Part shown: one piece after another, positions 29,814 to 45,990 of the stretch
Numbering within the stretch: position 1 is the stretch's first letter
How the letters are laid out: the number at the start of each line of letters is the position of its first letter
Assembly: GCA_046596195.1 (NCBI GenBank)
Contig: JBKJNA010000215.1
Coordinates: forward strand, 1 to 60,938
From: Acidimicrobiales bacterium
GTDB taxonomy: Bacteria; Actinomycetota; Acidimicrobiia; Acidimicrobiales; GCA-2861595
Direction of reading: 5' to 3'
Length of the DNA stretch: 60,938 nt
Made by a program: the position numbers and the translations under genes
The notes under the pieces: model-generated
What the model was told of the DNA's origin: nothing
Database searches by the model: none
Seen by the model: only the letters and a program-made list of their open reading frames with translations

Positions 29814-31550
29814 TCAACGCCGCCGCCGCCGTCGGCCCTCGCGTCGCCCGCTTGCCAACGCGACGAGTGCGAGCAGCATGGCCGTAGCCACCGCGCCAAC
29901 CGCGATGCGGCCGGCGAGCGACCTCTTCTCGCCGCCGGCCTCGGCCTCGGCCTCGGGGGCACCGGTACCCGGCGGTCCAGGTGCCGGCGCCACCTTTCTC
30001 GCCACGAACGAGCGCTTGTCGAGGATGCCGGACCCTTTGACGAAGGTCCAGCCGTCATAGACGGCGGGGCGGTAGGCGAATGCGCCACCCGCGAAGTACA
30101 GCGGGACGACGGGGACGTCGGCCGCCAGCAGCGCCAGGGCCTCGGCCACGGCCGCCTTTCGGGCCGCCGGTTCGGTGGTCGTGGCCACCCGGCGGGCCAC
30201 CTCGTCGAAGGCGGGGCTGCGATAACCGGAGAAGTTCAACGGCGCGGTCGCCGTGTCCGAGCCGAAGAGCCGTCCCAGGAACGTGGGGTCGTAGGAAGCA
30301 AGGGGCGGGCTGGTCCACACGGCGACCTGGAACGACGGGGGCGAGCCGTCCTCGCCGACGGCGTGCCCCAGCTCGTCCCGTGTCACCAGCTTCAGCTCAG
30401 CAGTGGCGCCGGCGTCCAAAAGCGCCTGGACCACGCGTCGGCCGGCCTCCGCCTTCGCCGGGTCGTTGCTCGGAGCCAGGAGGGTGATCGGGACGCCGGT
30501 CGTCCGTAGCACCGGTCGGGCTGCGCCGGGCTCGAACGAGTGAAGCGGCTCGGCTGACGCGAAAGGCGACTGCGGGTGCAGGTAACCGTGGTCCGCGGCC
30601 ACGGCATTGCCCACCGCCCTCGATATGCGGCCGAGGTCGATCGCCCCCGCGAAGGCCCGGCGGACGTCGACACTGTCGAACGGTGGTGAGCGGACGTTGA
30701 ACAGCACGACAGTCCCCAGGTACGAGGGGCCCTCGTCCACCCGGACCGAAAGGGTGTCGACCTGCTCCTTCAAGCCCTCCGGGAGGTTTACCGGGACCAT
30801 GTCGACCTGGCCACGCTGGAGGGCACGGACGGTCTCGTCGACGGCGGTGATGATGGGCACCTCGATGGTGGTCACCGCCGGCGGGCCGCGGAAGTACCCC
30901 GGTGCGGCTTCGAAGCGGTAGCGCTGCCCGGGGACGTGCTCGACGAGGCGGTAGGGCCCGCTCCCCACAGGGAGCCCATCAGGCGCCAACTTGGTTCTCG
31001 CCAGCACCTCCCAGAGGTGCTTCGGGATGATGGGGAGGTCGGCCAGAGGCTGGTCCATGAAGCCGGGCGCCGGTTGGCGGAGGGCGATGACAGCGGTGGT
31101 TGCGTCCGGCGTGTCCACCCGTTCCACCGCTGCCACCTCCCCGCTGAACCGGGGGTGGGGGTGGGCGGCGACGTAGGCGAAGGTGAACGCGACGTCGGCG
31201 GAGGTGACGGGGGCGCCGTCGTGCCATCGCGCTCCCTCGGCCAGGCGGACGGTGACCTTGCGGCCGTTGGGGCTCGTCTCCACCGACCGCGCCAGCCACG
31301 GCTGGGGAACGCCCTCGGCGTCGCGCCACAGGAGGGTGTCGTAGACCAGGGTCATCAGCGGGTACCCCAGCTCGAAGGTGTAGGGCGTGAGCGAGCCATC
31401 ATCCTGCGGGAAGGGCAGGCGCACGACCGCCACCGGCGCTGGCGCGCCACCGGGGGGCCCCGCGGGCTGGGAAGCCGCCGGTCCGTCGGGGCGCAGGGCG
31501 ACCACGCCAAGCGCGAGCGCGGCCAGGATGCGCCACCCCCGTCGTGTCAT
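29814..31550 (-). CDS. Family 5 (peptide/nickel) ABC substrate-binding protein with a C-terminal membrane anchor
   Basis: Motifs VYDTL, P.LA, RWHDGAPVTSADVAFTF and PVGSGPY; C-terminal hydrophobic helix followed by RRRRR. Start codon uncertain. Confidence 0.85.
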   Translation of the reverse strand: MTRRGWRILAALALGVVALRPDGPAASQPAGPPGGAPAPVAVVRLPFPQDDGSLTPYTFELGYPLMTLVYDTLLWRDAEGVPQPWLARSVETSPNGRKVTVRLAEGARWHDGAPVTSADVAFTFAYVAAHPHPRFSGEVAAVERVDTPDATTAVIALRQPAPGFMDQPLADLPIIPKHLWEVLARTKLAPDGLPVGSGPYRLVEHVPGQRYRFEAAPGYFRGPPAVTTIEVPIITAVDETVRALQRGQVDMVPVNLPEGLKEQVDTLSVRVDEGPSYLGTVVLFNVRSPPFDSVDVRRAFAGAIDLGRISRAVGNAVAADHGYLHPQSPFASAEPLHSFEPGAARPVLRTTGVPITLLAPSNDPAKAEAGRRVVQALLDAGATAELKLVTRDELGHAVGEDGSPPSFQVAVWTSPPLASYDPTFLGRLFGSDTATAPLNFSGYRSPAFDEVARRVATTTEPAARKAAVAEALALLAADVPVVPLYFAGGAFAYRPAVYDGWTFVKGSGILDKRSFVARKVAPAPGPPGTGAPEAEAEAGGEKRSLAGRIAVGAVATAMLLALVALASGRREGRRRRRR

Positions 31551-31636
31551 GGCCGGCGCCGCATCATGGCGGCCAGTCTCGCCCCGCTGCGACCGCATGT
31601 CAGGTCGGGCGGTGTCGGTGCTTCGCATGAAGCGAC

Positions 31637-31672
31637 TGGGGAGAGGGGGCCCGATCGGGCCCCCTCTCCCCA
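31637..31672. terminator. Perfect 36-bp palindrome (terminator-like)
   Basis: TGGGGAGAGGGGGCCCGA/TCGGGCCCCCTCTCCCCA, 22 bp downstream of the stop at 31695. Confidence 0.7.
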
Positions 31673-31694
31673 TTCCATCAGTCGCTACCTGCGC

Positions 31695-35353: not shown

Positions 35354-36601
35354 TCAGCCGCCGCCCGGTTTCTTCTCCGGTGCCGGAGCCGCTCCCGCCT
35401 CGGTGGCCCCCGCCCGGGCCCAACCCCTTCTCTTCACGACCACCGAGGTGACGAGGGTGTCGGCGAACGTCTGGCGCTTGGGGTCCCACGTCGGCCGCAG
35501 CCAGCCGGCGAAGGCGGGGAGGGTGTCGAGGACGTGGAGCACCTGACGGGCGATCGACCGCCATGGGCCCACCGGTTCTCCGTCGCGCTCGCGCACGAGG
35601 CAGATCCCGACTCCGCGCTTACCCCGCGTCTGGCCGGTATGGCCCTGCTCCACGAGCGAGCGTACGACGAGGACGACTGCGGCAACCAGGCCCAGGGCGG
35701 CGAACGCAGTCGCCGCCCCCTGGTACTGGAACACGCTCTGGAAGAACAGGCCCGTAGCCGCCGCAAGGCTCACCACGGCCAAGGGGATGGCGGCGTCCAC
35801 GAGGGAAGCCCGCGCCCGGGCTGACCACGGGGCGAGGGCCGCCCCCGACCAGATGGCCTGGCGCACCGCCGCCTGCGGGGCCCCGCCTTTCCCGGCGAAG
35901 GCGGCGCCGCGATAGTCGGGGTCGTGGCGGAAGCGGGCCTGCTCGAGTCTGGCCTCGCCGAGGAAGGTGACGTCAGGGAAGAGGGCATGGCAGTCGAAGG
36001 CGGCGCCGTCGAAGGTGGTGTCCCCCTTGAACGTTGCCCCGTCGAAGTGCGCGTCAGTGGCGAAGGCGGCCCGGCCGAACCAGGCCAGGTTGGCGAACTC
36101 CGCCTGCATGAACGAAGCCGGCCCCTCGAACCTGGCGCCCCCGAACCACGCCTGGCCGGCGAACGCTGCACCCTCGAAGCTCGCCCGGCCTGCGAGCGAT
36201 ACCCGGGCGAAGCGGACGTTGCCATCGAAGCGGGTCCCCTCGAAGGCGGCATCGCCCTCGAAGCGGGCGCGGTCGAAGGAGGTTTCCTTTGCGAAAACCA
36301 CCCCGGCGAAGCCGGTGCCAGGGGCGAACGTAGCGCGGTCGAAGCGGGCCCTGGTGAGGATCGGCCTACCGGCACCGTCGCACGGCGTGGCGTCGAAGAT
36401 CTGGCCGAGCAGGCCGGCGTCGACGTGCACGCCCCGGGCGTCGAGCGGCCTGCCGCGTGCGAGCGCGCCCATCGCCGACGCCCGCTCCGTGTCGTCCAGG
36501 TGGGCGAGGCAGGCGCCGGCGGCGGTGCGCACCCCGGTGCACCCCGGTTCACGACACCGCTCCCAGGGAACCTCGGAGGCCTCGACCTCGGTCACCGTCA
36601 C
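35354..36601 (-). CDS. Pentapeptide-repeat plus RDD-domain membrane protein
   Basis: A.F.GA.F.G repeats, then RARASLVD...GQTRGKR..GI...KRQTFAD of the RDD type. Start overlaps the upstream stop (GTGA). Confidence 0.8.
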   Translation of the reverse strand: MTVTEVEASEVPWERCREPGCTGVRTAAGACLAHLDDTERASAMGALARGRPLDARGVHVDAGLLGQIFDATPCDGAGRPILTRARFDRATFAPGTGFAGVVFAKETSFDRARFEGDAAFEGTRFDGNVRFARVSLAGRASFEGAAFAGQAWFGGARFEGPASFMQAEFANLAWFGRAAFATDAHFDGATFKGDTTFDGAAFDCHALFPDVTFLGEARLEQARFRHDPDYRGAAFAGKGGAPQAAVRQAIWSGAALAPWSARARASLVDAAIPLAVVSLAAATGLFFQSVFQYQGAATAFAALGLVAAVVLVVRSLVEQGHTGQTRGKRGVGICLVRERDGEPVGPWRSIARQVLHVLDTLPAFAGWLRPTWDPKRQTFADTLVTSVVVKRRGWARAGATEAGAAPAPEKKPGGG

Positions 36602-37866
36602 GGAGCAGGCGCCGCCTTCCGGATGTACTCGCGGGTGAAGCCTTCCAGATCCTCGACCCCGATCCGGTAGTAGCGGCGCAGGAGCCGTTCGTCAAGGCGC
36701 GACCGGACAGTACCAACCTGCCCTGAGCAGAGCAGGGTGGGCTCGGGGAGGTTCTTGAAGTTCTGGTAGAAGTCGAAGAACTTCTCGGACCCGCCCTTCT
36801 CGACGAGATAGAGAGCAGCGGCGTAGGCGAAGGCGTAGTCGAGGGGGGGTTCGTTGGGGTTCAACCGCAGACCGGCGAGCTCGTCCGCGGCGACGATCGC
36901 CCGCCACTCGGCGCTTCGAACGGCGTGCTCCTCGGCCAGGAGCATGGCCCCCCCTTCTGCCACCCAGCCGTTCGTGCACGGCCGGGTGAAGCGGGACAGG
37001 GCGAGGTGGGCAAGCTCGTGGCGGAAGACCTCGTCGGGCTGGACGGGCCTCAGGCTCTGCTCGAGCTTGACCTCGCCCACCTCGGACAACGCCTGGAGAT
37101 TGGCCATCGCCAGACGCTCCTCCGGGCGGGCCGGGTGGCCAGCCGTCACGATGAACGGGTGACGAGCGAGTGCCACGCTGCCCTCGTCCCCGTAGTTGTC
37201 CATGTACTCCTTGCGGTCCGTGGCGAGGACGAGGAGAAGACGGTCGTCGGGCGTGAGGGTCAGCCGGGGTCGAAGCTCGGCGTAGGCCTTCTCGGCCTGA
37301 TCGGTGATCTCGGCCACGCTGGAGACGCCAGGACGGGCCATGACCAGGAAGTGGGGCGAGCGGGTGATCTCGACGGGCCCGAACGGCCAGAGCGGGGGGG
37401 GTGGCGGCGCGTCAGGGGGGAGAATGAACTGGGACTTCGTGACCACCCAGCCTTCCTGGCGTCGCTCGATGTCGTACAGGAACCGCAGGCGGAACGGGTT
37501 GTCGGCGGGCAGCTCTTTGAACGAGTACTGCATCGTGACGCTGGCGTTGCGGAAGCTGCTGCCGTCGTCGGAGATGGTGGCCTCTCCCACGGTGAGGTCG
37601 ATCTTGGAGAGGGGAAGGGTCACCGCCACCCGGGCGATCGGCTCCTCGAAAGCCCGGGCCTCGGGGCTGAGGGCGGCCAGGTAACCCTCCACGTCACCGG
37701 CCAGCAGGCGCTTCGCCCGCTCCCGAAGCATGAGCTGCACGGGCCGGCGGGGGTTGGCGACCAGGCCCTGTCCCTCGGCGTCGGTGACGGCCTGCGTGTC
37801 GCCCTGGCATGCAGCCAGGGTCGTGGCCGCCGCCAGGAACAACGCCAGCCACCGGACTCGGCCCAC
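36598..37866 (-). CDS. Lipoprotein with an HExxH (peptidase MA-like) domain
   Basis: Lipobox LAAC; FRHELAH...WVAEGGA. GTG at 37866 chosen because the longer ORF overlaps the FtsH-like gene. Confidence 0.75.
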   Translation of the reverse strand: MGRVRWLALFLAAATTLAACQGDTQAVTDAEGQGLVANPRRPVQLMLRERAKRLLAGDVEGYLAALSPEARAFEEPIARVAVTLPLSKIDLTVGEATISDDGSSFRNASVTMQYSFKELPADNPFRLRFLYDIERRQEGWVVTKSQFILPPDAPPPPPLWPFGPVEITRSPHFLVMARPGVSSVAEITDQAEKAYAELRPRLTLTPDDRLLLVLATDRKEYMDNYGDEGSVALARHPFIVTAGHPARPEERLAMANLQALSEVGEVKLEQSLRPVQPDEVFRHELAHLALSRFTRPCTNGWVAEGGAMLLAEEHAVRSAEWRAIVAADELAGLRLNPNEPPLDYAFAYAAALYLVEKGGSEKFFDFYQNFKNLPEPTLLCSGQVGTVRSRLDERLLRRYYRIGVEDLEGFTREYIRKAAPAP

Positions 37867-37932
37867 CGAGCTTAATGTAGGCGACGGCGCGCCCCGGCGT
37901 CTTGCTACCCTCGACCCGACCAGGGGGACGCT

Positions 37933-40900
37933 ATGGCAGACAAGCGCCAGGCCACGCGCAAGAAGGCCCGGAAAGAGAACAAGAAGAGCATGCTCGGCGT
38001 GTGGACGGCGGTGATCGTCCTCGTGCTCGTCGGCTCCTACTTCGCCGTCATCGAGGTGAACCGGCCGAAGGTGCCCGGTGACAACCTGCGCCTCGACTCC
38101 TTCGTCGACCTGGCCGAGCGCGGCCGTCTCAAGAGCGCCACGATCCTCAATTACGACTCGTACGCCGTGGGGAACTACGTGCGGGACGACGAGACGACCC
38201 ACAAGTACAACGCCGTGTACCTCAAGGAGAGCCAGGGCCTCCTGGTCGACGTGCTGCTCGAGAACCGGGTCGCCACAACCGTCGACCAGCAGACCAAGAA
38301 GCGGCTGATCTCCCTCGTCGCCACCGTCCTCCCCGGCTTCGTCCTCATCGTGTTGTTCGTGTACCTGATCCTGTCGTCGCGCCGCGGGACGGGCCTGTTC
38401 AAGGTCAAGAGCGGCGCCCGCAAGATCGAGCCCGAGCCCGGCGGCGTCACCTTTGCCGACGTGGCCGGCCAGGACGCAGCGGTGGCCGAGCTGCGGGAGA
38501 TCAAGGACTTCCTGGCCGACCCGGGGCGCTACGCCGCCGTCGGCGCCCAGATCCCCAAAGGGGTGCTGCTCTACGGCCCTCCGGGGTGCGGCAAGACCCT
38601 GCTGGCCAAGGCGGTGGCGGGCGAGGCGGGGGCCAGCTTCTATTCCATCTCCGGTTCCGACTTCGTGGAGATGTACGTGGGGGTGGGCGCCGCCCGCGTG
38701 CGGGACCTGTTCAGGGTCGCCCGCGAGAATGCCCCGGCGGTGATCTTCATCGACGAGCTCGACTCCATCGGCCGGTCGCGCGGTGGTGCGTCCTCCACCG
38801 TGAACGACGGGGGCGAGCGCGAGCAGGCGCTCAACCAGATCCTCGCCGAGATGGACGGGTTCTCCGCGTCCGACGGCATCATCGTCCTGGCCGCCACCAA
38901 CCGCCCTGACATCCTCGACCAGGCGCTCCTCCGGCCGGGCCGCTTCGACCGCAGCATCGGCCTGGAGCGGCCCGACGAGAGCGCCAGGGTGGCCATCCTC
39001 GCCATCCACGCCAAGGGCAAGCAGCTCGACGCCGACGTCGACCTGGCGGCGGTGGCGGCGCAGGCTGTGGGCTTCACGGGCGCAGACCTGGCCAGCGTGC
39101 TCAACGAGGCCGCCCTGCTGGCGGCCCGGGCGGGCAGGTCCGAGATCTCCCAGGCAGAGCTCGACGAGGCCGTGCAGCGCATCCTCAGCGCGCCCGAGCG
39201 CCAGCGCCGCCTGTCCATGCGCGACAAGAGCATCGGCCGGCGCTACAGCGAGCAGGACAAGGTCACCTTCGCCGACGTAGCCGGCCAGGACCCGGCCGTC
39301 GAGGAGCTGCGGGAGATCAAGGAGTACCTGTCCGAGCCCGAGCGCTACGCGGCGCTGGGTGCGGCTGTGCCCAGGGGGGTCCTGTTGTTCGGGCCGCCCG
39401 GGTGCGGCAAGACCCTCATGGCCAGGGCGCTGGCGGGCGAGGCCAACGCCGCCTTCCTCTCGGTGAGCGCCAGCGAGGTCGCCGGGTCGCTCGTGGGGGA
39501 AGGCGCGTTGAGGATCCGCGACCTGTTCGCCGAAGCCAGGCAGATGGCGCCCGCCATCTTGTTCATCGACGAGCTCGACTCGCTGGGCCGCTCACGAGCG
39601 GGCACGACGGGGGCCGACCGGGGCTCCAACTCCAGCCACGACGACCAGGCCATCAACCAGATCCTCACCGAGCTCGACGGCTTCACCCCCTCCACCGGCG
39701 TCATCGTGCTCGGCGCCACCAACCGGCCCGACGTGCTCGACCCCGCCCTGCTCCGGCCGGGCCGCTTCGACCGCACCATCGGGCTCGATTGGCCCAACGA
39801 CGTGGCCCGCCTCGCCATCCTCACCCTGCACGCGAAGGGAAAGGCACTCTCGGCTGACGTCGACCTCGAGGCCATCGCCGGTCGGGCCAACGGGCTGAAC
39901 GGCGCCGACCTGGCCAACATCATGAACGAGGCCGCCCTCCTCGCCGCCCGCCACGAGCAGGAGTCGGTGTCGCAGGAGGACCTGGACCTCGCGCTCCAAC
40001 GAACCCTCCAGGCCCCCGACCGCCAGCGCCGGCTGTCCATGCGGGCCCGCAGCGTCGGCCGGCGCTTCGCGGCGGACGAACGGGTCACCTTCGCCGACGT
40101 GGCGGGCGTCGACGACGCCGTCGAGGAGCTTCTCGACGTGCGGGACTACCTGGCCGAGCCCGACCGCTTCGCCAAGCTGGGCGCCACCCCGCCCAAGGGG
40201 ATCCTTCTCACCGGGCCCCCGGGCTGCGGCAAGACCCTCCTGGCCAGGGCCGTGGCCGGGGAGGCCAACGCCGCCTTCATCTCCGCCTCCGGCGCCGACT
40301 TCGTCGAGATCTTCGTGGGCGAGGGGGCGGCTCGTGTGCGTGACCTGTTCGCCGAGGCGAGGTCGATGGCGCCGGCCATCGTGTTCATCGACGAGATCGA
40401 CGCCATGGCCGGGCACCGCTCGTCCGGCCCCGACGCCTACGGGGGCAGCCGGGAACAGGACGCCACGCTCAACCAGCTACTGGTCGAGCTCGACGGGTTC
40501 GAGGGCCGCGAGGCGGTGATCGTCATGGCTGCCACCAACCGCCCTGACATGCTCGACCGTGCCCTCCGCCGCCCGGGCCGGTTCGACCGCCAGGTCGAGA
40601 TCACCCTCCCCGACCGCAACGGGCGGCTGGCCGTGCTCGAGGTCCACGCCAAGGGCAAGGCGCTCGGTCCCGACGTCGACCTCGCGAAGCTGGCCGGCCT
40701 GACCCCGCAGTTCTCGGGCGCCGACCTTGCCAACGTGCTCAACGAGGCCGCCCTCCTGGCCACGCGCCGAGGCATACCCCACGTCACGATGGACCTCCTC
40801 GACGAGGCCATCGACCGTGCCTTCCTGGGCATCACGTCGCGGCGCCACATCATGTCCGAGGAGGAACGCCGGGTCACCGCCTACCACGAGGCCGGCCACG

Positions 40901-41418
40901 CCCTGGTGGCCCTCGGCGTCGCGGGCGCCACCCCGCCCTACAAGGTCACCATCCTGCCCCGGGGCGGCACCGCCGGGCACTGCACGTTGCTCGACGACCA
41001 CGATCCGCTGATGCCGTCGCGCTCGGCCATGCTGGCCCAGATGGCGGTGTCCGTCGGCGGGTGGGCGGCGGAGATGCTCGTGTTCGACGAGGCGTCGTGG
41101 GGGTCGGGCAGCGATCTCAAGAAGTTGAACCGGATGGCCCAGGAGATGGTGTGCGAGCTGGGGATGAGCGAGGAGTTCGGGCCCATGACACCGGTCGACG
41201 GCCGGGGCTACGACGGGCGGGCGGCGCCGTTGTCGCCCGAAGCCACCGCGGCGATCAGGCGGCTGGTCGACGAAGCCACCGCCAAGGCGCGCGCAGCGCT
41301 CGTCGCCCGCCGCGATGCGCTGGACCGGGTGGCAGCGGCCCTGGTCGAGCGCGAGACCCTCACCAGGGCCGACATCGAGGCATTGGCCGGGGACGGCACG
41401 CCGGCCGCCACCCGCTGA
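37933..41418 (+). CDS. FtsH-like membrane metalloprotease with three tandem AAA+ modules
   Basis: Two N-terminal TM segments; three copies of [20 protein letters not shown] and ATNRPD...RPGRFDR; one M41 domain with HEAGH and GSDL. Confidence 0.92.
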
Positions 41419-41869: not shown

Positions 41870-42378
41870 TCGGCCGCCCGTGCCGGCTGGCGGCGGCGTG
41901 TGACGGGGGCGACAAGGAGCACCAGCCCGATGACGCCGGCGGCCACTCCGCCGAGGCGGAGCCCCCTGCGCAGGGGGGCTCGGCGCTGGGAAGTCGACCA
42001 CGGCACTGGCGAGGTCCTGTCGTCCGTCGGCCACGGTGCCGGCGCGGGTGTCGGTCCACACGGCGAGCGCCCGCCCGTCGGTGGCCACCAGGCCGAGGCG
42101 GTCGCCGAGGTCCGCCATCCCCCGGTCGCCGCCGAGGCCCATGCGGGAGTCGAAGGCCCGGTCCGACAGGCGCAGGCTCGGGGCGAAGGTCCGGCCCCCG
42201 TCGAACGACGAGCGCAGCGACACGGTGTTCATCGTGTCGCCCGGGTCTGCGCCACGGTCGTAGTACACCACGTCGAGGCGCCCCCCGGCGCCACCGCCAG
42301 CTGCGAGAGGTACTGGGCCCGGTCGCCGCCGGGGCCCGCCTCGTTGACCCGGCGGGGCGCAGACCATTGCCAGCCGCC
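41866..42378 (-). pseudogene. 5'-truncated, doubly frameshifted paralogue of the BNR protein at 44383-45990
   Basis: RVN...RAQYL.QLAVAP / GRLDVVYYDR...SFDG.RTF...DLGDRLG...AVWTDTRAG...QDLA matches the paralogue. Frameshifts fall in the C6 run at 42281-42286 and the G6 run at 41973-41978. Confidence 0.75.
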
Positions 42379-44204: not shown

Positions 44205-44382
44205 CGCGAGGATGGCACGCGGCCTGATCCTCAGAGCGGCTCGCGGAGTTCCTGGTGACCGGTGCGGAATCCACGAAACCTATTTGATCCGCGCCGGACG
44301 CGCCACCACCAATTCCCCACGCAGGCTGATCGGCCCAATTCGACCGCTGCGAGCCGGGCGTGTTCGGGGTAGTTTCCGCCCG

Positions 44383-45990
44383 ATGCATGAGCCACGCGCC
44401 ATCGTGACGGCGGGAACTCACCGTCGGCGCCGGTGGCCCGTCGTCGTAGCCGGAGTGGCGCTGGCCGCCATCGGGGGTACGGCGGTGCGGTTCTCGGCCG
44501 GAGCGAGTGCCGGCACGGCGCGTGTCGTCGGCGGGAACCGCCCGGTGAACGCGGGCGCCACTGATCCGGTGGACCTCACGGCGCACAACTCGCCCGCCCT
44601 CCGGGCCAACCCCACCGACCCGCGCAATCTGGCCGTGGCCAACCGGATCGACGGCCAGGCGTCGTCATGCGCCCTGCACGTCTCCTTCGATGGCGGCGCC
44701 TCCTGGACGGCCACGCCGCTGGCGCTGCCGGAAGGTCGGACCGTCGCCTGCTTCTCGCCGGACCTGTCCTTCGGGGCAGACGGCACGCTCTACGTCGTCT
44801 TCACCTCCTTCGCTCCCGTGGAGGGCGCCGGCACCATGCCCGACGCGGTGTGGCTCGTCACCTCGGCAGACGGTGGGCGCACGCTCGGGCCGGCGATGAA
44901 GATCGGTGGCCCCCGTGCGTTCCAGTTGCGGGTCGCCGCCGATCCCGCTCACGCCGGCCGCCTCTACCTCGCCTGGCTCCAAGGGGGCCAGACCTCGAGC
45001 TGGGGCTTCGCAGGTGTCGACAACCCGGTGGTGGTCTCGCGCTCCGACGACGGCGGGGAAACATGGGGCTCGCCAGTGAGGGCGAGCGGGCCGTCCCGGG
45101 CGAGGGTGATCGCCCCGTCGATCGCCGTCGGGCCCACCGGCGATGTGGCCGTCGCCTACCTGGATGTGGGCGACGACCGCCTCGACTACCAGGGCGCCCA
45201 TGAAGGCCGGGGCGGCGATCCCTACGCCGGTCATTGGGCGCTGGTCGTGGCCCGGTCCTCGGGCAACGGGACGACGTGGCGCGAGGTGGTCGTCGACGCG
45301 GCTGTGGTCCCCACCCAGCGCTTCCTCGTCCTGTTCCCGCCGGCGCCGGCACTGGCCGTCGACCGCCGTAACGGTGCGCTGTACGTCGCGTTCCACAGCA
45401 GCCGTATGGGTGACCCCGACGTGTGGGTCTGGGCGTCCGACGACGGCGGGACGAAGTGGCGGGCGGCGAAGCGGGTCAACGACACCCAACCGCGCGACGG
45501 GCGGGCGCAGTACCTGCCGCAACTGGCTGTCGCTCCGGACGGGCGCCTCGATGTCGTGTACTACGACCGCCGCAGGGATTCCGGCAACGTGATGAACACG
45601 GTGTCCATGCAATCGTCGTTCGACGGAGCAAGGACATTCGGTCCGCACGTGGTCCTCTCCGACGGGTCCTTCGATGCCCGGATCGGCTTCGGCAGCGACC
45701 GTGACCTCCCCGACCTCGGCGATCGCCTGGGCATCGTGGCGACGACCGCTGGTGCGCTGGCGGTGTGGACGGACACCAGGGCCGGGTTGCGGGAGACCGG
45801 GAAGCAGGATCTCGCCGGCGCGGTCGTCGCCGTGACGCCGCCACCGCGCCCGAAGGAGGCCCTGAGGGTGGCCGGCGCTGCTGTCGCCGCCGCCGGCGTC
45901 ATCGTGGCGCTCGCGGGCGTCGTGTGGCGCCGGCGTGTGGGGGCTGGATCGGCCGATCCAGCCCCGAACGGCTCCCATGCGGTCGCGTAA
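44383..45990 (+). CDS. BNR/Asp-box (sialidase-fold) surface protein
   Basis: Repeated S.DGG.(S/T)W Asp-boxes; N-terminal hydrophobic segment; C-terminal TM plus WRRR. Confidence 0.82.
   Translation: MHEPRAIVTAGTHRRRRWPVVVAGVALAAIGGTAVRFSAGASAGTARVVGGNRPVNAGATDPVDLTAHNSPALRANPTDPRNLAVANRIDGQASSCALHVSFDGGASWTATPLALPEGRTVACFSPDLSFGADGTLYVVFTSFAPVEGAGTMPDAVWLVTSADGGRTLGPAMKIGGPRAFQLRVAADPAHAGRLYLAWLQGGQTSSWGFAGVDNPVVVSRSDDGGETWGSPVRASGPSRARVIAPSIAVGPTGDVAVAYLDVGDDRLDYQGAHEGRGGDPYAGHWALVVARSSGNGTTWREVVVDAAVVPTQRFLVLFPPAPALAVDRRNGALYVAFHSSRMGDPDVWVWASDDGGTKWRAAKRVNDTQPRDGRAQYLPQLAVAPDGRLDVVYYDRRRDSGNVMNTVSMQSSFDGARTFGPHVVLSDGSFDARIGFGSDRDLPDLGDRLGIVATTAGALAVWTDTRAGLRETGKQDLAGAVVAVTPPPRPKEALRVAGAAVAAAGVIVALAGVVWRRRVGAGSADPAPNGSHAVA

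Follow-up and report, generated by a model that had tools for sequence, protein, structure and literature searches.

The window analysed here, 60,938 nucleotides of DNA in full, comes from a soil actinobacterium and carries a gene for an FtsH-type protein with three AAA+ modules and a single protease domain. The protein is a membrane-anchored FtsH paralogue, and we consider it likely that it forms a hexamer in which three ATPase rings are stacked, p97-style, on top of a single protease ring. FtsH has one AAA module per chain and is hexameric. The open reading frame described here encodes 1161 aa with two membrane helices, three complete AAA+ modules and one M41 protease, and the following features were located in it and directly upstream:

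37922..37928, + strand: purine-rich stretch upstream of the ATG, resembling a ribosome binding site (seen in the sequence; putative function)
37933..41418, + strand: whole open reading frame, in the order TM1, outside domain, TM2, AAA1, AAA2, AAA3, M41
37993..38061, + strand: predicted TM helix 1 (aa 21-43), from hydropathy and a helix in the model
38062..38292, + strand: small alpha/beta domain between the TM helices (aa 44-120; model pLDDT 84-91), likely extracytoplasmic by analogy with FtsH topology
38305..38373, + strand: predicted TM helix 2 (aa 125-147), from hydropathy and the model
38446..39192, + strand: AAA module 1 (aa 172-420), pore loop YVG, all catalytic motifs intact
39193..39261, + strand: linker 1 (aa 421-443), with Ala-Pro in place of the FtsH hinge Gly
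39262..40014, + strand: AAA module 2 (aa 444-694), pore loop LVG, catalytic motifs intact, a mosaic of first-type and last-type segments
40015..40083, + strand: linker 2 (aa 695-717)
40084..40827, + strand: AAA module 3 (aa 718-965), pore loop FVG, catalytic motifs intact
40828..41388, + strand: hinge Gly966 and M41 zinc protease domain
40885-40899, + strand: HEAGH
41113-41115, + strand: third zinc ligand, Asp1061

The Pfam domains AAA and AAA_lid_3 were each found three times in the 1161-aa protein and Peptidase_M41 once (score 147.6, cutoff 29.9). TIGR01241 reached 1364.6 bits, summed over three stretches (cutoff 600), and both results agree with the three tandem AAA+ modules and one protease of the preliminary description. 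The Cdc48 model TIGR01243 remained below its cutoff (695 versus 803). All three modules have the features of the FtsH family, namely Walker A and B, sensor-1, two arginines and the DGF motif. VTFADVAG starts at 38446, 39262 and 40084 (aa 172, 444 and 718, a spacing of 272 and 274), Walker A lies at aa 215, 487 and 761, Walker B at aa 271, 543 and 817, RPGRFDR at aa 334, 608 and 880, and the linker motif at aa 421 and 695; a module alignment gave YVG, LVG and FVG as pore loops of modules 1, 2 and 3. All of these elements are where they had been placed before. HEAGH occurs only once, at aa 985. The N-terminal anchor consists of two hydrophobic helices according to both hydropathy and the model, and the M41 domain lacks the FLG loop as well as four residues of the next helix.

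An assembly repeat as the source of this arrangement was ruled out by the divergence of the modules, by contigs that bridge the junctions, by homologues and by purifying selection. The modules are 55-63% identical to each other (170/272, 148/269 and 148/271 aa; 66-69% for DNA), and both linkers are bridged by contigs from two studies, which upholds the earlier view that this is not a simple assembly repeat. Linker 1 is crossed by near-identical contigs from runs X1, X2 and X4, and linker 2 by such contigs from X1, X4 and X5; none of them covers the gene from end to end, and X1 is possibly the source sample itself. Comparison of the G000 gene with its G001 orthologue resulted in dN values of 0.10-0.12 versus dS values of 0.60-0.92 in each of the three modules, and by this measure each module is under purifying selection. 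Degeneration of the extra modules was ruled out as well, with catalytic motifs intact in every module. Judged by these comparisons, the three-module gene is real and selected.

Among 120 homologues listed, 74 have three modules and M41 (73 of them other than the query), 42 have two, 2 have four, and 2 are without the protease stretch. A search directed at the linker was added (120 matches listed of 380), giving a combined set of 218 proteins, from which 20 partial proteins were dropped. The remaining 198 full-length chains comprise 124 two-module, 72 three-module and 2 four-module members. Their source names are mainly Acidimicrobiales, with Solirubrobacterales, Thermoleophilaceae, Gaiellaceae, Egibacteraceae, Mycobacteriales and one Chloroflexota bin also present. 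With a linker profile, matches were obtained in 13 of the 22 family genomes, a tally that takes in six unpublished genomes (G004, G009, G010, G011, G018 and G020), none of them matching, and in 4 of 401 genomes sampled across the phylum. The 120 homologues listed (638-2032 aa) included no member with five or six modules, which is weak evidence of absence, and a search for longer proteins gave one match at E<=1e-150, a dinoflagellate protein with alternating AAA-M41 units. A scan of genome contigs was dominated by canonical FtsH (one multi-module locus in 80) and served as control set only.

The catalytic residues are strongly conserved throughout this family. In all 464 modules of the two- and three-module chains the Walker A Lys, the Walker B Asp and both arginines are invariant, the Walker B Glu is absent once and the sensor-1 Asn twice; the motifs are also intact in the diverged extra modules of the four-module chains. 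In three-module chains the pore-loop aromatic is present in 72 of 72 first, 45 of 72 middle and 70 of 72 last modules, and in two-module chains in 124 of 124 first and 114 of 124 last modules. The zinc site (H, E, H, D) is complete in 75 of 75 three-module chains. Thus, from their motifs, all modules look active.

In order to follow the history of the modules, trees were built with FastTree. First, middle and last modules form position-specific lineages, with 5 changes compared to 149 after shuffling, and 71 of 73 middle modules are nearest to the middle module of another protein. For most members this rules out that module 2 was copied, recently and repeatedly, from the modules beside it. P0060 clearly departs from this, with a middle module that most resembles the last module of the same chain (77% identity) and points to recent re-duplication or gene conversion. 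In the middle module, a mosaic, the segment that holds the pore loop falls with last modules (support 95) and the C-terminal half with first ones (93). This pattern fits duplication of a unit spanning a junction, or selection for neighbours above and below. In the protease tree the multi-module chains form one clade (99) that has one long-branched single-module paralogue inside, and 15 switches between two and three modules were counted. The modules group with FtsH paralogues, apart from the sampled protease-free double-AAA proteins.

A wider scan covered 150 proteins (149 representatives at 50% identity and one match from the long search). Tandem AAA modules placed before an M41 domain, without the family linker, were present in 33 of these, 25 with two, 7 with three and one with four modules. 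In a tree with 43 randomly chosen family modules, a branch with support 94 sets the family apart; in at least 12 of the remaining proteins with several AAA modules and M41, modules of one protein are each other's sisters. Such sister relations in other lineages indicate that the duplication happened many times. Several of these unrelated proteins have a degenerate first module. The same scan contained six representatives with five tandem AAA-like modules and without M41 (P0129, P0131, P0136, P0140, P0154 and P0236), and there were two proteins with repeated whole AAA-M41 units (P0121, a named dinoflagellate protein, and P0133), a different architecture and possibly polyproteins or gene-model fusions. 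The sequence comparisons thus indicate that the three-module architecture is not unique, being found in an actinobacterial family and in independent recurrences. As to the idea that it is already common and characterised, the family exists and the architecture recurs in other lineages, and no characterising paper was found.

Structure models were used to ask how the modules are placed relative to each other. The AF2 model of the full-length protein (74 rows) is locally good and globally uncertain (pLDDT 82, pTM 0.47), with low-confidence linkers. Module 3 and the protease of this model matched 3kds with a Z of 41.0 and an rmsd of 4.2 Å over 421 residues, while modules 1-2 matched p97 only at 9.3-10.4 Å, Sec18 at 5.8 Å and Rix7 at 7.3 Å. 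Module 2, linker and module 3 were modelled with an alignment of 125 rows that included 124 two-module relatives, and this model reached a pLDDT of 90.9 and a pTM of 0.82. Across both modules it superimposes on substrate-engaged p97 (TMq 0.78-0.79, rmsd 4.3-4.4 Å; for 7lmz_E and 7ln2_E, TMq 0.79 and 4.3 Å), compared to about 9 Å only for resting p97. VIA-align gave 489 residues at 3.7 Å for p97 (9yrc_A), 493 at 4.0 Å for NVL (9bji_E), 494 at 4.1 Å for Cdc48 (8u8i_A) and 473 at 4.6 Å for Rix7 (7swl_E). In a rough, toy point-cloud geometry, an arrangement of the modules as ring neighbours was 12-26 Å away from the stack. The predicted pose of modules 2-3 is thus of the stacked D1-D2 kind, and AF2 may favour a p97-like pose from solved structures. 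The last lid helix runs on into the first half of the linker in both models; for the 22-residue D1-D2 linker of p97, a conserved first half with helical propensity is described (PMC4730245). No solved chain spanning three modules was among the structure matches listed, and none of the 50 structure matches listed was a dynein or midasin chain, which excludes nothing.

The preliminary description had left the choice between a hexamer with three rings and a dimer that builds one six-module ring. The latter can be generalized to a dynein-like ring made of two three-module or three two-module chains, which would contain only two or three proteases. We regard this arrangement as unlikely, and the evidence is divided. 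Two or three modules, both divisors of six, are found in 196 of 198 full-length members, which is a point against stacking. The diverged four-module members count for stacking, because four modules do not fill six ring seats; the extra modules of these chains share 70% and 76% identity with the modules next to them. Compared to that of p97, the linker has about 10 residues more, which would suit a concatenated ring, but junctions of 9-12 residues exist in other lineages. Junction gaps range from 9 to 30 residues in unrelated lineages versus 24-25 in the actinobacterial family, and junctions as short as 9 residues support stacked rings. A first, under-powered covariation run (effective number about 41) had its top pairs in a cyclic in-ring pattern, 1-2, 2-3 and 3-1, with z up to 4.7, and this also speaks for ring neighbours. 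Pooled covariation (effective number about 75) did not reproduce these in-ring pairs and mildly favoured contacts within the same module; its best same-module pairs had z values of 4.3 and 3.1 and pairs with the next module at most 2.3, in a likewise under-powered analysis of two pre-chosen lateral-interface blocks in which the signal stayed below the 99.9% level of 4.7. The low pTM of the full-length model and the loose match of its modules 1-2 to p97 are further points against stacking; the confident two-module model, being D1-D2-like, argues against the single ring.

The protease domain also bears on this question. Some protease-ring positions are less conserved in three- than in two-module chains (Asp in 24/75 versus 32/41, Glu in 55/75 versus 39/41), a point for the concatenated ring. 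Four residues of the protease-ring helix are missing in 11 of 75 three-module chains, the query and 10 others, which again counts against stacking. The FLG loop is absent also in 17 of 27 single-module paralogues; its loss is therefore not tied to module number and does not favour the concatenated ring. Met and Gly residues that we take to match M666 and G671 of AFG3L2, placed by motif spacing, are kept in 74 of 75 and 72 of 75 three-module chains. In AFG3L2 the residues of the protease-ring interface include M666 and G671 (10.1101/551085), and conservation of this Met and Gly may speak for a stacked hexamer, although the interface comparison as a whole is mixed. The hinge Gly before the protease is kept in 196 of 198 chains, and the corresponding position at the inner junctions is Ala at 251 of 274, with 21 of the 274 not parsed. 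Since the hinge Gly is required for degradation and protease coupling in YME1 (10.1101/189316), its retention at the protease and the Ala at the inner junctions support the stacked model as well. Taken together, the two-module model, the four-module members and the short linkers favour the stacked arrangement and disfavour the dimer ring.

Rather improbable, somewhat more so than the single ring, are mixed hexamers, in which three-module chains would combine with one- or two-module paralogues, leaving the upper rings incomplete or in the role of regulatory appendages. Heteromeric FtsH complexes exist in cyanobacteria and mitochondria, two- and three-module genes occur together in five genomes (G001, G002, G003, G006 and G019), and single-module FtsH-type paralogues number at least 8 in G000. 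In every module, however, the arginine fingers and Walker B hardly vary, which implies lateral neighbours for every module. In addition, G000 and G013 (95% and 85% complete) have a three-module gene without a two-module partner among the linker matches, and this counts for a stacked homohexamer, as does the similar dN/dS in all three modules. That only the last module and the protease work, the others being duplications that are merely put up with, or spacers that sense ATP and fix the distance to the membrane, is very hard to believe: the pore-loop aromatic of middle modules is relaxed and module number changes often, but the first-module aromatic is kept in 196 of 196 two- and three-module chains, catalytic residues are kept, the three modules resemble each other in dN/dS, and the lineages by position go far back.

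In the stacked hexamer, like modules of six chains would form each ring, so that a presumed hexamer would have 18 ATPase sites. Ring 1 may grip the substrate at the membrane, ring 2 could pass it on as an ATP-burning relay that holds it less tightly, and from ring 3 it would enter the protease via the retained glycine hinge.

The source genome, G000, has 3.74 Mb, a GC content of 71% and a completeness of 95%. Besides the three-module gene, 8 other ORFs match the protease domain and one divergent AAA ORF carries HExxH; each has one Walker A. Single-module FtsH-type paralogues are strongly expanded in this genome (contigs C228, C174, C11, C238, C63, C222, C5 and C151), and several of them are without the FLG loop of the protease domain. 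A separate canonical ftsH is present, as the ORF on C174 groups with canonical actinobacterial FtsH. The three-module gene is consequently an extra paralogue and likely accessory. Another frame, L114:585-6140 on the + strand, encodes 1851 aa and ends in a single AAA-M41 unit; its approximately 1390 N-terminal residues have no Pfam match, and it may be only a long GC-rich open frame.

The neighbours of the gene were compared with 17 multi-module loci of relatives. A gene for a BNR-repeat membrane-anchored protein is near 10 of the 17; this link is weak, because the source genome has 18 tblastn matches to BNR genes. In the window, an apparently fragmented BNR-repeat copy (41966-42378, - strand) lies beside an intact one (44290-45987, + strand). 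A TrmB regulator is near 6 of the 17 loci, one of which is the query itself. The gene at 29814-31673 (- strand) encodes a family-5 solute-binding-like protein with a hydrophobic C-terminal tail, and genes of this type are near 8 of 17 loci, mostly head-to-head, including all 6 three-module loci. About 70 bp upstream of the three-module gene, a divergent gene (36601-37860, - strand) encodes a predicted lipoprotein with HExxH and a downstream Glu; it has no Pfam match, and genes of this type accompany the multi-module ftsH at 2 of 17 loci of relatives. The surroundings of the gene point to surface or membrane-anchored proteins and name no substrate. We infer that the protein probably does not serve as the housekeeping FtsH and instead takes on, as an accessory enzyme, membrane-associated substrates that are stable or hard to extract.

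With canonical FtsH, YME1 and AFG3L2 (PDB 3kds, 6nyy and 6az0) the protein shares two N-terminal TM helices, FtsH-type AAA, the hinge Gly and HExxH...D. It differs from canonical FtsH in having three AAA modules per chain instead of one, in its Ala-Pro inner hinges, in the absence of the FLG loop and in coexisting with a canonical ftsH. Tandem classical-clade modules, a predicted D1-D2-like pose and a linker with a helical first half are shared with the type II proteins p97/Cdc48/VAT and NVL/Rix7, whereas the three modules, the FtsH ancestry, the longer linker, the membrane anchor, the fused protease and the lack of an N domain set it apart from them. Dynein and midasin have six AAA modules in one chain that forms one ring; several AAA modules concatenated in one polypeptide are thus common to them and the protein described here, but they belong to a different AAA clade (for dynein, see PMC5039278), and the pose predicted here is stacked, not side by side. 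Like ClpAP/ClpCP and Cdc48-20S, it would have more than one ATPase ring feeding a protease (PMC5039278, PMC7226402); those systems have two rings and a separate soluble protease, whereas here three modules and the protease are in the same membrane-anchored chain. The protein is hence an FtsH/M41 family member, not a canonical FtsH, and is predicted from the models to work like a type II AAA+ unfoldase with an extra ring and a fused protease.

The AAA+ protein translocases treated in the reviews consulted have a single ring, as in FtsH and PAN, or two, as in Cdc48 and ClpA; why some require two is described as unclear (PMC5039278). Two is also the largest number of AAA+ modules per chain described for such unfoldases in the relevant parts of PMC5039278 and PMC7226402. 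No description of a multi-module FtsH was found in a literature search that left most subscription journals and supplements outside, and the architecture is apparently undescribed. This is a real family, which annotation pipelines hide under 'FtsH' or 'AAA family ATPase'.

We lean towards the view that these proteins represent a three-ring, 18-ATPase "type III" AAA+ machine in which ring number would be an evolvable dial, set from one to four and often to several values per genome, and arrived at separately in many bacterial lineages as a way to gain pulling force or processivity at the membrane. A three-ring stack would extend the known architecture of AAA+ motors. The family provides a natural series of closely related one- to four-module proteases with intact ATPase sites and a built-in proteolytic read-out, by which the contribution of each ring to force, processivity and inter-ring coordination becomes testable.
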